Positions 36,463-53,967 of a stretch of 64,000 nucleotides of DNA are shown piece after piece. The stretch's first letter is position 1, and each line of letters begins with the position of its first letter. The notes below the pieces were generated by a model, which was not told the DNA's origin, made no database searches, and was given only the letters and a program-made list of their open reading frames with translations. Source of the DNA: Candidatus Binatia bacterium (lineage in GTDB: Bacteria; Desulfobacterota; Binatia; Bin18); the NCBI GenBank assembly GCA_965231765.1, contig OZ246887.1, positions 3,090,755 to 3,154,754 on the forward strand. Direction: 5' to 3'. The translations under genes and the position numbers were made by a program.

Positions 36463-38078
36463 ATGCCGACCCTGGACTTCAAAGGAAAACAGATCGTCTA
36501 TGCCCATCACCTGACCGTTCCTTCGAGGACGCTGGAGCCGGATGCCCCCAAATCTCTCCCGCCCAAAGACCAACAGCCGTCCCTTGACGACAATCTGATT
36601 ATCCACGGTGATAGCTTGCACGCCCTCAAGGCGCTCATGCCGCGCTACGCCGGACGGGTGCACTGCATCTACATCGACCCTCCCTACAACACCGGCAACG
36701 AAGGCTGGGTGTACAACGACAACGTGAACAGCCCACTGATGCAGGAGTGGTTGAAAGGCAAAAGCCCGGTAGACGGCGAAGACCTGGAGCGGCATGACAA
36801 ATGGCTGTGCATGATGTGGCCGCGCCTGCACCTGTTGCGCGAACTGCTGGCCGAGAACGGGGCGATTTTCGTTTCGATTGATGACAACGAAGTACATCAC
36901 TTGCGGATGATGCTGGATGAGATTTTCGGAGGAGAGAATTTTGTTGGACAATTTATTTGGAAGAGTAGGCAAAACAAAGATAATCGTAACGTGACTGGAG
37001 CTTCAATTGACCACGAATACGTCCTTTGCTACGGGACTGCTATACGAGGCGAAGAACGAAAAAGAGGTCTGTATTCAAATCCTGACAATGACCCAAGAGG
37101 GGATTGGACTAGCGGCAATATGGTAGGACTCGCGACAAAGGAGGCTCGCCCGAATCTACATTTTGACCTTATCAACCCAGAAACGGGGATCAGTTATGGA
37201 TGCCCTATTAGAGGCTGGAGGTACGATCGAAAACGGATGGCAGAACTGATCGCGCATAACCGGATATTGTGGCCGTCTATGGAAGAAGGAAGGCCGAGAG
37301 TCAAAGTTTTTCTCGACGAATTGAAAGAAAAGTACACTGGGTTCTCCTCGGTTATTGGCGAAGGGTTCTTTACAAGAAGCGGGACAAAAGAGATTGACGA
37401 AATTTTTGCAACGAGAGTTGTCGAGTTTCCGAAGCCATTTGGGCTTGTTCGTGAAATCTTGACTCAAGGCTGTCCGAGCGACGGGCTTGTTTTGGACTCC
37501 TTCGCTGGCTCCGGCACAACCGCCCAAGCGGTCTTAGCGCTGAACAAGGAAGATGGCGGGAACCGCAAATTCATCCTCGTGGAGTGTGAAGACTACGCCG
37601 ACACCATCACCGCCGAGCGCGTGCGCCGCGTGATAAAAGGCGTCCCGAACGCGAAGGACGAAAACCTGAAAAACGGGCTGGGCGGCGGCTTCACCTATTG
37701 CACCCTGGGCGAAGAAATCAGCCCTGAAAAATGCTCACCGGAGAGCATCTGCCGGACTACGACACCCTGGCCCGCCACCTCGTCTACACCGCCACCGGCC
37801 ACGCGCCGGGCAATATCCGCAAAACGCGAAGCAAGGACGGCCTTTTCCATGAAACGGATGACCGCCTATTCTACCTGATCTACCAGCCGAATCTTGACTT
37901 CCTGCGTAGCGCCGATTCCGCCCTGAACAGCGACCGCGCCGACCGCATCGCCAAGCAAGCCAAGACCAAGCACAAAACCGCCGTCGTCTTCGCCACCCAT
38001 AAGTTCATGGGGCAGAAGGAGTTGACGGACATGGGCATTGTGTTTTGCGGGCTGCCGTATGGAATTTTATCGAGCTGA
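36463..38078 (+). pseudogene. mod: Type III R-M methyltransferase (Mod), frameshifted near 37730
   Basis: IHGDSLHALK, IYIDPPYNTG, LDSFAGSGTT, RKFILVE; the C-terminus continues in ORF 37731..38078 after a 1-nt deletion in CCTGAAAAATG. Confidence 0.88.
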
Positions 38079-38130
38079 CTTCTCAACCGACAATGCGCGT
38101 GACAACAGCAGACCGTCAGAACAAGGGACA

Positions 38131-51349: not shown

Positions 51350-51412
51350 GTAGATCTGCTTAGCGAAGCGTAAGCCGACATCCCCAGAACGCATCGCAAC
51401 CATTCACGGCTC
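51350..51412 (+). repeat. Junction 3: REP + leader of the resident res gene
   Basis: GTAGATCTGCTTAGCGAAGCGTAAGCCGACATCC...CCATTCACGGCTC before ATG 51413. Confidence 0.85.
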
Positions 51413-53967
51413 ATGCAACTCAAAATCTACCAGCAGCAAGCTCTCGACCAGCTCGACCACTGGCTTGAAGCGCTTAAAGACGCCTTGCAGGAAAGGGAAG
51501 AGGCGAAGGAGTTTTATGGAAAGCGAGGAAAGAATATCCCCGATGACATGGCCGACTATCCCAGTTCCGCCTGGAAGAGCCTGAAAGAGCAAAGCATTCT
51601 TCCCGCCGTCCAGAATCAAGACGGAAATACCGAAGTCCCCGACTACATCTCCCGAACCGCAACGTCCGGTGAGCCTGCCCCGCACATCTGCCTGAAAATC
51701 CCGACCGGCGGCGGGAAGACGCTGCTGGGCGTTGCCGCGCTTGAGCGTATCAAGCAGGACACGGGCTTTGTGCTGTGGATCGTGCCGACGCGGGCGATCT
51801 ATGAGCAGACGCTCAAGGCATTCAGAACCCGCGAACATCCGTACCGGCAAATGCTCGAAAGAATTTCCGGCGGCAAAGTCAAACTGTTGCAGAAAGACGA
51901 CCGCTTTACCAAACAGGACGTTGCAAGCCGGCTGTGTATCATGATGCTGATGCTGCCGTCCGCCAACCGGCAAACAGGCAAGGACTTTCTCAAGATATTC
52001 CGGGACAGCGGCGGGTATACATCGTTCTTTCCCGAACAGGACGACATGACCGCGAACCGCGAGCTTTCAGAACACCTCCCCGACCTGGAGAAGAATAGCA
52101 GCGGCGATTGGGTCAAGCAAAGCCTGATCAACGTCCTGAAACTCATCCGTCCGACCGTGATCCTGGACGAAGCGCACAAAGCCTATGGGCCGAATGACAA
52201 AAATAACCGGGAGTTCGTCAAGTCCGTCAATCGGCTCAATCCTCGCTTCGTGCTCGAACTGTCCGCCACGCCGAAAATCGGTATCAGCAACATCCTGGTC
52301 AACATCTCAGGCACCGAGCTTCAAGCCGAGGAGATGATAAAGCTGCCCATAGAGGTCCACAGCTTCACCAATTCCGACTGGAAGCATACGCTGGCCGAAA
52401 CGCAGAAAAAAGTAGAGCAACTGGAAGAGGAAGCGCGGCAACTCCAAGCGAGAGAAAACCGCTATATCCGTCCCATCGCTCTGGTCCGGGTGCAACGAAC
52501 GGGCAGGGAGCAGCGGGGCCAGGGAAACATTCATTCCGAGGACGTGCGCGAATACCTGATACGGAATCTTTCCGTACCGGAGGCGTGGATACGAGTGCAG
52601 TCGTCCGAAAACAAGGAACTTGGGCACGAAGATTTATTGAGCGACCACAGCCCCGTGCGCTGGATTCTGACAAAAGACGCGCTCAAAGAGGGCTGGGATT
52701 GCTCGTTTGCGTATGTCCTGGCCCTGCTGGATAACACAACGGCGACGACCGCCATGACGCAAATGGTGGGGCGGATCATGCGTCAGCCGTACGCCCGGAG
52801 AATTGAGACAAGTAAGGCCCTGAACCAGTGCTACATCTACTGTTACAACAAGGACGTGGGCAAGACGGTTGAGGGGGTGAAGGCCGGCCTGGAAAACGAG
52901 GGGCTGACGGGCTTGGGCGATACCGTTCGCGGCTACGGCACAGGAGACGCCCCGAAGCCGATGACCGTCCAGCGTCGCGGCAGCTATAGCAGCCTCAAAA
53001 TTTTCCTCCCTCGGGTTCTGCACAAAAAGGGCAAAGGCTGGCGTCCGATTGATTACGACCGCGACATATTGAGCGCTGTGAGCTGGGGCGCGATTGACGC
53101 GGGTGGGGCGGTGAATCTGGACGACCAAGAGACCATGCGGGAGATCATCGCCACAGTTGATGTTCAGGGCGGGGAAAGCGTCTCCAACGAGTCTTTTGAG
53201 ACCGGCGAACGCTTGAGCCTTGACTACTTTGTCCGGCGGCTCACCGACATCGTGCCCAATCCGTGGCAGGCGGCGCGTATACGCAGAGCTTTCTCGACCA
53301 GCACGAGACAGAGGGACACGACGGTTCAAGACTGCTGAATCAGCGGGTATATCTCTCAGAAGTATTGAGACGCAGGGTGAAAGCCGACATTGACGCCAAA
53401 GCCGAAACGGTTTTCCGTGATAAGGTAGCGAGCGATGATATCCGGTTCCAGCTTGAGACCGATGAGCGACTGAACTATGAGCTGGGCCGGTCGTTTGAGG
53501 TGTTTGCTGCCAAGGAGGAGAGAACCCTTCAGGGTGAGCACGCCAGCCCAATACAACGCAGCCTGTTCGAGCCTCTTTTTGAGAGCGAGTTCAACAGTCT
53601 GGAAAAAGACTTTGCGCTGTATCTGGAAAAGAGCAACGCGCTATATTGGTGGCACAGAGTCGCCGCGCGGCAGGACTACTATCTCCAGGGCTGGCGGCGC
53701 CAGCGGGTGTATCCCGACTTTGTGGCCTGTCGGAGGGAGGACGGAAAGCTGCTGATCTTGGAAACAAAAGGTATTCACCTGAAAGGAAGCGAGGATACGA
53801 GCTACAAGAAAAAGCTGCTGGCAACCCTTGAGGACGCATACGCAGCCGCCTTTGAGAGAGGACAAATACAATTTAACGAGCCGCCGGCGACATTCAGGAT
53901 GATGTTTGAAGATACATGGCAGGAACAGGTCAGCGAACTGCTGAACGAGCAATATCAGAGACGGTAG
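51413..53967 (+). pseudogene. res: Type III R-M restriction subunit (Res), frameshifted near 53280
   Basis: KIPTGGGKT, ILDEAH, LSATP, ALKEGWDC, QMVGRIMRQP; nuclease YPDFV...ILETKG lies in the shifted frame 53263..53967. Confidence 0.88.

Follow-up and report, generated by a model that had tools for sequence, protein, structure and literature searches.

Defence genes and candidate defence genes nested between the components of another defence operon were surveyed by Payne et al. (2024, 10.1101/2024.01.29.577857), who found that 96.7% of such embedded genes have the same orientation within the defence operon. Their survey dealt with Hma, BREX, DISARM and Type I restriction-modification (R-M) operons, not with Type III, and left the origin of embedding open; the words "recombination" and "integron" are absent from its main text. 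Here we describe a Type III R-M locus at positions 36463-53967 of a 64,000-nucleotide (nt) stretch of DNA, hereafter the window, from a Candidatus Binatia bacterium (GenBank assembly GCA_965231765.1, contig OZ246887.1, positions 3,090,755 to 3,154,754), in which unrelated cassettes lie in tandem between the mod and res genes and are separated by scraps of the ends of these two genes. As in embedding, candidate genes are nested between operon components in the same orientation, and some match families of that survey (one gene of the window matches PDC-S39, and the DUF1828 gene of a related locus, L008, matches PDC-M24B). Tandem units with gene-end scars, on the other hand, are not described in its main text.

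Other known systems resemble parts of this arrangement. PrrC in EcoprrI (Type Ic) and TgvAB in the Type I system of VPI-2 are also second-line defence genes inside an R-M operon (PMC3710099, PMC11411939), but as presented there they are single fixed insertions of shown function in Type I systems, with no arrays, scars or variable slot. Type VI secretion system (T6SS) arrays of Vibrio cholerae come closer, having a conserved anchor gene, new modules added beside old ones and remnants at the boundaries, for which homology-facilitated illegitimate recombination (HFIR) was proposed (PMC5361080). In that account the module is the toxic tip of one protein with its immunity gene and the arrays grow downstream, whereas here whole unrelated genes lie between two R-M genes, both ends are scarred and the frame is shared across phyla. 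Integrons likewise hold promoterless-looking same-strand cassettes beside a fixed frame, with short repeats at the boundaries, but our locus has no integrase and no attC-like site per boundary, its breakpoints vary and its repeats are pieces of the flanking genes. Displacement of the C-termini of Rhs and contact-dependent inhibition (CDI) proteins reportedly produces analogous orphan arrays by sequential displacement, and Sibley and Raleigh are said to have described in 2004 restriction gene sets exchanged by homologous recombination in conserved flanks; in that case housekeeping genes flank a cassette made of the R-M genes, while here the R-M genes do the flanking. Embedding in R-M operons and displacement arrays are already known, and what is new is the Type III slot with its gene-end scars, of which we found no description in the literature searched (supplements and subscription journals lay outside its scope).

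We compared the window with 33 related loci (L001 to L033, with res at 10001 in most), collected by a scan with Res at one genome per species and sharing 66-89% Res identity, and with contigs from other sequencing runs (X1 to X7). The two R-M genes and what lies between them are as follows.

36463 to 38078, plus strand: Type III mod gene (PADLOC MTase_III, E 3e-146), with a start supported by L005
38038 to 39753, plus strand: unit 1, a protein with TPR and a marginal DUF2971 match (Pfam), of cassette family C1, which by clustering has eight members in the slot
39796 to 39881, plus strand: leader copy A (repeat search and blastn), a well-formed hairpin, leader and res +1 to +21, with the ATG at 39861
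39880 to 39956, plus strand: mod 3' scrap, the last ca. 72 nt including the stop, joined to res +21 (alignment)
39967 to 41273, plus strand: unit 2, a protein of 286 amino acids (aa) and no known family with a PIN protein (40824-41273), families C4 and C3, of six members each
41301 to 41405, plus strand: leader copy B (repeat search and blastn), hairpin, leader and res +1 to +40, with the ATG at 41366
41403 to 41866, plus strand: unit 3a, a mod tail, a hicA remnant from 41435 with an internal deletion, and HicB (41608-41826)
41845 to 41869, plus strand: a fourth, degenerate hairpin with a flipped loop, just after which homology to L031 and L004 stops
41870 to 51347, no strand: a later insertion of 9.5 kb, absent from L031, L004 and a contig of run X1
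51348 to 51412, plus strand: leader copy C before the full-length res, hairpin degraded (alignment and folding)
51413 to 53967, plus strand: Type III res gene (PADLOC REase_III)

The order is therefore mod, TPR-DUF2971, res +21 joined to mod -72, the 286-aa and PIN genes, res +40 joined to mod -9, the truncated HicA with HicB, a hairpin, the 9.5-kb insertion and finally leader and res. An earlier reading made from the letters of the window (the sequence-only reading) had placed mod and res ca. 13 kb apart, and the distance from the mod stop to the res ATG is indeed 13,334 nt. It had also given units 1 and 2 in this order; what it took for a third unit is a HicAB cassette followed by the later insertion. 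Both subunits of a Type III enzyme are recognizable, mod also by Pfam N6_N4_Mtase (E 3e-29) and res by REase_III in two parts (E 2e-168 for the first, 1e-41 for the second), whose open reading frame (ORF) pieces align to 1-652 and 658-881 of the 883 positions in the PADLOC profile, and by Pfam ResIII (E 1.5e-14). Two features of a standard Type III operon are missing in the window: res does not directly follow mod (nor does it in the relatives, with gaps of 256-6941 nt), and neither reading frame is intact. A -1 frameshift lies in the A run at 37727-37731 of mod (A5 here vs. A6 or AAAGAA in the relatives) and another in res at 53281/53282, where a related X1 contig has an extra G after 53281; in the alignments the relatives are in frame at both sites. 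Overall, frames are intact in most relatives (mod in 25 of 32 copies, res in 29 of 31).

The stacking is recorded in duplicated gene ends. The hairpin, res leader and 5' end of res occur three times, as the sequence-only reading had seen, at 39796-39900 (A), 41301-41405 (B) and 51348-51452 (C); repeat search and blastn both detect them, with 90% identity between A and B over 81 nt (E 4e-23), 85% between B and C over 105 nt (E 3e-25) and 84% between A and C over 81 nt. Of the 3' end of mod the same reading had seen two copies, and these are found at 38006-38061 and 39884-39939 (91%, E 2.5e-13), but it overlooked a third tail, the last 9 nt with the stop (AGCGGCTAG), to which res +40 is joined at junction B. 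At junction A, codon 7 of res runs directly into the last ca. 72 nt of a mod, and the tail of this scrap (39880-39956) matches the mod tail that precedes the same cassette in L003. Junction B recurs in L004 with the same downstream DNA (88.7% over 504 nt). Read by eye from the alignments, the microhomology is ca. 2 nt ("AA") at junction A and ca. 3 nt ("AGC") at junction B. Cassette-specific sequence takes over immediately behind the conserved "...TTGCCGTATG", about 15-20 nt short of the mod stop. In different loci a given cassette has the same mod tail in front of it, and the last mod codons travel along with the cassette. The res start of copy B is 92-95% identical to the res of L001, L010, L013 and L021 vs. 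85% to the window's own res, which bears out the earlier suggestion that the diverged copies are different alleles: the duplicated ends look like foreign ones.

Such a structure could arise if the assembler had stitched the units of different strains together at short repeats, since the 5.74 Mb genome, of metagenome type, is one single contig and contains repeats of 80-105 nt (the 33-56 kb part of the window was searched by blastn against the whole genome). However, Logan contigs from three samples of one study, possibly including the source of the genome, carry the same sequence. In X5 and X6 positions 36347-43259 of the window lie in one 6913-nt contig each, and in X7 in two overlapping ones (36347-41333 and 41304-43259), all with 0 differences and 0 gaps, so that junctions A and B are each bridged inside a contig in all three. 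Other error-free contigs of these runs extend to 54100, with breaks at repeats only and with similar depths; over 36347-43259 the depth equals that of the flanks. They also contain both frameshifts. Because these contigs agree, neither the locus structure nor the frameshifts are artefacts of the deposited assembly, and the same architecture is found in the independent chromosome-level metagenome-assembled genomes (MAGs) of L003, L004, L010 and L026; we give stitching next to no probability. Some joints in the run contigs were set aside. Those of X1 at 37630>51770, 39880>51566 and 39887>41956 have short sides of 20-47 nt, with 90-95% likeness, and come from other organisms of that metagenome. 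From X1 we kept two items, the inserted G after 53281 and the joint of 41858 to 51371, for which L031 and L004 give the same picture. Two joints of X5-X7, 48315>51131 and 54100>36023, were rejected as circles and are other genomic repeat copies; a circle junction would look identical to a tandem junction.

The relatives show that the mod-res space in this Type III family is a cargo slot for small defence or toxin-antitoxin (TA) cassettes. By NCBI taxonomy the 33 loci belong to Binatota, Nitrospirota, Acidobacteriota, Nitrospinota, Thermodesulfobacteriota and Gammaproteobacteria, which puts the family in at least six phyla. Many of the relatives have sponge-derived names and runs X2-X4 are labelled sponge metagenome, which is a matter of labelling; the small word shares of X1-X4 were not used as habitat evidence. 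Nor are the loci independent, L021 and L022 being in one MAG, L013 and L041 (see below) in the same organism, and the operon being transferred horizontally. Of the 33, 31 have a mod gene upstream of res, at a distance of 256-6941 nt (median 1883 nt); the exceptions are L006, which lacks upstream DNA, and L031, which has only a 5' piece of mod. The slot is nearly empty in L028 (256 nt) and in the second copy of L010 (about 10 nt), whose second mod is the only one that abuts res. Most ORFs of at least 70 aa in the gaps (72 of 86) are on the operon strand; 30 of the 86 were scanned against Pfam and 10 against PADLOC. Variable cargo in this interval of 31 relatives supports the sequence-only reading.

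Clustering by blastp gave recurrent cassette families. The TPR/DUF2971 family has eight members and the 286-aa protein and its PIN partner six each, those of the window included, and units 1 and 2 of the window recur in the same slot in other phyla; unit 2 is 83-91% identical at the nucleotide level to L003 6435-7980. A three-gene set of a methylase, a kinase-ORC/CDC6-like ATPase and a CARF-like protein occurs in five loci, a HEPN RiboL-PSP cassette in four, a pair of an 81-aa protein with a PIN protein in three and a class 3 lipase (Lipase_3) in two. Single occurrences include HEPN_Swt1-CBS, DUF1828 (PDC-M24B, L008), DUF4145 (PD-T7-4), a trypsin-like protease, DUF6680, ParDE, HicB and one IS1595 transposase (L014). 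In the three-gene cassette (L001 5180-9844, also in L014, L018, L026 and L033) the first protein is DNA methylase-like, the Ser/Thr kinase is fused to the ORC/CDC6-like ATPase (PADLOC CARF_STK_AAA, PD-T4-6-like kinase) and the third protein matches CARF-type models; the set has the look of a complete defence system inside the R-M operon. A metagenome scan with Res returned one close locus, L041, which repeats L013 with 100% cassette identity and adds no independent locus; its other 37 matches are relatives at 22-37%. Searched in the ESM Atlas, the 286-aa partner of the PIN protein fell in unnamed clusters only.

The most direct comparison is with L005, the orthologous locus, in which the flanks align at 72-80% on both sides and the slot holds different cargo, namely HEPN, HicAB and a 176-aa ORF. 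Between the window and L005 the R-M genes are 83-88% identical at the nucleotide level vs. 72-80% for the syntenic flanks, and this greater likeness suggests a recent transfer or gene conversion.

In 16 of the 31 loci the res ATG has a same-strand ORF ending no more than 13 nt away. This position, the shared strand and the richness of the cargo in RNases and toxins (HEPN, PIN, ParE, lipase) could be taken to mean that the cargo works together with the R-M enzyme, as guards like PrrC or back-up effectors that respond when Mod or Res is inhibited, and is kept in place by selection for co-expression, with PrrC in EcoprrI (PMC3710099) and TgvAB in a Type I system (PMC11411939) as precedents. As an explanation of the slot this is unlikely, although it is compatible with the one that we prefer below: the cargo differs greatly in kind from locus to locus, and there are slots with little or nothing in them (L028 and the second copy of L010).

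Scars similar to those of the window were searched for in the 31 gaps and that of the window (90.7 kb) with nucleotide profiles built from the opening 75 nt of res and from the final ca. 140 nt of mod. We found 17 res-5' or mod-3' scraps in 10 of the 31 relatives (one of them the 3' end of the second full mod of L010) and three in the window, all on the operon strand; blastn adds L022, which brings the relatives with scraps to 11 of 31. The opposite strand of the same 90.7 kb gave 0 matches and a control of 254.8 kb of downstream flank gave three. Scraps are mostly at cassette boundaries, for example between the protease and the 286-aa and PIN unit in L016, between ParE and the DUF2971 gene in L013, between the DUF2971 gene and the three-gene set in L026 and on both sides of a partial 286-aa gene in L017. 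The breakpoints vary from res +21 with mod -72 and res +40 with mod -9 in the window to res +357 with mod -110 in L003, where in addition a leader is cut 20 nt before the ATG, and a res scrap of 15 nt in L004; the scraps of mod measure between 9 and about 250 nt, and in L010 a second mod is retained in full. Fragments of mod 3' or res are also present downstream of the intact res in L021 (13018-13101), L018 (18983-19104) and L012 (18353-19512), and these loci are flanked by remnants of further R-M copies.

The sequence-only reading had thought the capture possibly due in part to cleavage at the leader hairpin by an HUH enzyme, as in repetitive extragenic palindromic (REP) elements, and had called the array integrase-free and integron-like. 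A dedicated site-specific mechanism of either kind, REP with its REP-associated tyrosine transposase (RAYT) cutting at the hairpin or an integron-like recombinase that uses the repeated leader, would find some encouragement in the good folding of the hairpin in copies A and B (-21.2 kcal/mol and z -3.7 in A), in the bracketing of the 9.5-kb insertion by two hairpin copies, just past one of which the homology to L031 ends, and in extra inverted hairpins in L003 and L005. Nevertheless, it is very improbable. The scars break at res +21, +40, +15 and +357 and at leader -20, with no single site, and because the breakpoints vary with minimal microhomology a fixed recombination site is excluded. The hairpin is present in just five of the 33 relatives (L003, L004, L005, L007 and L031), has 5-8 copies in the whole genome, four of them in this locus, and is degraded both before the full-length res and at 41845. 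The genome's only PF01797 (Y1_Tnp) gene lies 1.1 Mb away (genome position 4230390-4230731) with no hairpin within 800 nt of it, so that the search for a matching RAYT ended without one; neither the many copies nor the flanked cognate Y1 gene of a REP/RAYT system is found. No recombinase domain was found in the ORFs of at least 110 aa at 33.8-54.8 kb, nor in the 30 of 86 gap ORFs of relatives that were scanned, and Rfam gave no match at gathering thresholds over 34-55 kb. Of the integron comparison, then, the absence of an integrase and the analogy remain, but there is no attC-type site per cassette (the hairpin is in few loci and the junctions vary). Rather than a recombination site, the hairpin is most plausibly a piece of the res leader of the Binatia-like lineage, perhaps a fragile one, given that one breakpoint falls at its edge.

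Two further observations concern palindromes. The hairpins at 41845-41869 of the window, at 9330-9360 of L004 and at 9945-9970 of L031 have the same stem with the loop in reverse complement (CGCTTCG vs. CGAAGCG), which would be the expected product of inverting the palindrome centre. The high-copy REP-like element of the genome, a CTCCCTCTCCC...GAGGGAGAGGG palindrome at 34489-34540 (34496-34535) with 69 blastn-short matches, is unrelated to the res-leader hairpin.

We consider it somewhat probable that cassettes of different alleles have been stacked in the mod-res slot by way of a homologous anchor and one illegitimate joint. Each added unit would be brought in by DNA of a different allele of this operon; one side would pair with the conserved 5' end of res or 3' end of mod, and the other would be joined illegitimately at 2-3 nt of microhomology. 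Alternatively, a fragment with mod 3', cargo and res might be circularised and enter by a single crossover, and double crossovers in both conserved ends could swap cassettes without a scar. No dedicated recombinase would be involved. We infer the one-sided anchor because the breakpoints differ between loci and the microhomology, read by eye, is of only 2-3 nt. Both HFIR and the route by circularisation and single crossover are documented processes (PMC3240628), and one-sided homology has been proposed for T6SS effector-immunity arrays and for Rhs loci (PMC5361080). As in sequential displacement, each stacked unit has a scrap of the anchor gene and is similar to a unit elsewhere, at junctions A and B and with scraps in 11 of the 31 relatives. 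The first 45 nt of res, with a mean pairwise identity of 0.84 vs. 0.58-0.72 in the next 180 nt and 0.75 overall, are conserved on par with the helicase motifs, which fits the role of an anchor, although a constraint on the N-terminus or on translation explains it equally well. The sequence-only reading had regarded the units as cassettes of different strains captured via conserved gene ends; the slot, the scraps, the ends from foreign alleles and the cargo of L005 agree with this, but its REP/HUH cleavage and its third unit are not supported.

Several points weigh against stacking by anchored capture. HFIR is rare where its frequency was measured, at 3e-10 per recipient in Escherichia coli conjugation (PMC3240628), and the 45-nt conserved end of res is a short anchor. 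Scarless boundaries exist (HEPN next to HicAB in L005, and also L001 and L014). The unit model does not accommodate the 9.5-kb segment. Unit number did not vary in the X5-X7 contigs, which is weak evidence as contigs drop rare forms. Cassette identity largely tracks Res identity, so much of the sharing may be co-inheritance of whole operons, and for this reason the capture events may be few and perhaps old; exceptions to this co-variation are L021/L022 (Res 100%, DUF2971 82%) and the HEPN cassettes, whose identities are flat. Tandem copies of whole R-M loci followed by deletion could give the same scars, as L010 has two full mods and L012 a second decayed res. Finally, because its frame of mod and res is broken, the array in this genome is a fossil in which nothing is "acting", the word used by the sequence-only reading. 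Besides the two frameshifts, its decay is visible in a miniature inverted-repeat transposable element (MITE) upstream of mod, in the deletion in hicA and in the 9.5 kb of mostly opposite-strand genes and repeats.

The possibility of tandem copies deserves to be spelled out. Two or more complete R-M loci could be brought into tandem, either through duplication or because a second, mobile R-M inserted, and deletions from the res of one into the mod of its neighbour would then leave res-5' and mod-3' scars, the whole being a junkyard in a genomic sink. The two full mod genes of L010 with a res scrap between them, the second decayed res 6 kb downstream in L012, the mod-3' matches downstream of res in L021 and L018, scraps upstream of mod in L027, scrap lengths from 9 nt to a full gene and the decaying locus of the window itself are all what passive decay would leave. 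Yet diverged alleles must still be brought side by side by some event, which is again a homology-anchored insertion, most cargo-bearing relatives have intact mod and res, the scars are at cassette boundaries and on the operon strand only, and the same families occupy the slot across six phyla. We think passive decay alone a rather unlikely origin and retain anchored capture of foreign cassettes as the better explanation.

The remaining cargo of the window differs in character. Units 1, 2 and 3a have the orientation of the operon and lie between its components, as embedded genes do, in contrast with the 9.5-kb segment, which is mostly on the opposite strand. In L031 and L004 the leader and res, or else a scrap of res, come immediately after such a hairpin as closes the HicAB unit. 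The insertion contains the following.

42276 to 42936, plus strand: HigB/HigA
43242 to 44072, plus strand: CBS ORF with a 15-nt tandem repeat
44109 to 44184: REP-like element of a second family, with at least nine copies
44331 to 45539, minus strand: DUF4062
46381 to 48264, minus strand: DUF7380-DUF4209, that is, PDC-S39 (PADLOC E 9e-220)
49244 to 50707, minus strand: TOPRIM/OLD-like gene
50969 to 51334: repeat debris

None of the proteins of the insertion was found in the slot of any relative, and tblastn (E up to 1) found no further mod or res remnants in 42-51 kb. The domains that the sequence-only reading had assigned to the cargo are largely as listed here, with two reservations: the HEPN of its "HEPN-CBS" gene was not found by domain searches in the ORF at 43242-44072, and the DUF2971 match of unit 1 is marginal (22.7 bits vs. 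a cut-off of 22). Six copies of the 15-nt repeat at 43209-43326 give the CBS ORF a Glu/Lys/Arg-rich N-terminus, and the ORF ends inside its single CBS domain, being probably a truncated gene. Two segments of ca. 126 nt (48284-48409 and 51125-51250) flank the TOPRIM/OLD-like gene 2.7 kb apart; at another locus of the genome (about 2408948-2409761) they are only ca. 0.56 kb apart, and the TOPRIM gene may lie inside, or replace the core of, a small repeated element.

Upstream of mod we found three more features.

35497 to 35537, plus strand: mod 5' scrap of 38 nt (mod +61 to +98), 95% identical to 36490-36527
35640 to 35981, plus strand: MazE/AbrB-like gene (Pfam PF04014, E 8.5e-7), 91% identical in nucleotides to L005 6260-6609
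35990 to 36440, no strand: MITE-like insertion between the MazE/AbrB-like gene and mod, absent from L005

The 38-nt scrap is a clean insertion relative to L005, ca. 930 nt upstream of mod and near the start of an alpha/beta-hydrolase gene, and could represent either a templated patch or what is left of an earlier copy of mod. In L005 the MazE/AbrB-like stop is ca. 20 nt before the mod ATG, the two genes abutting. The MITE-like element has T-rich 10-nt periodic repeats and internal inverted repeats, and the core of the repeat (36020-36384) is found 4-5 more times in the genome at 67-91% identity. In L005 there are also ca. 400 nt between the hydrolase and MazE-like genes (about 5830-6260) that are absent from the window; one of their frames reads by eye like the N-terminus of a Dam-type methylase, and they may be a scrap of a lost R-M gene.

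Candidate-defence matches in the window and relatives include PDC-S39, the N-terminal part of PDC-S60, PD-T7-4, PDC-M24B, a PD-T4-6-like kinase and TA families, and the anti-phage function of the embedded genes is putative, resting on these family matches. Their position makes defence candidates of the TPR-DUF2971 protein, the 286-aa protein with PIN, HEPN RiboL-PSP, the class 3 lipase, DUF6680 and the trio of methylase, kinase-ATPase and CARF-like protein. The scars are consistent with a specific and testable route for how embedding arises. More tentatively, it is possible that the mod and res ends serve as universal homology arms by which bacteria of different phyla in one dense community, apparently that of sponges, capture, stack and swap cassettes without a recombinase, expressed from the operon and coupled to res, on a platform that is itself under selection. 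If true, this would provide a mechanistic basis for embedding and an analogue of the integron built from homologous recombination. One operon and its cargo, found at 66-89% Res identity in six phyla, bears on how defence genes move in host-associated communities.

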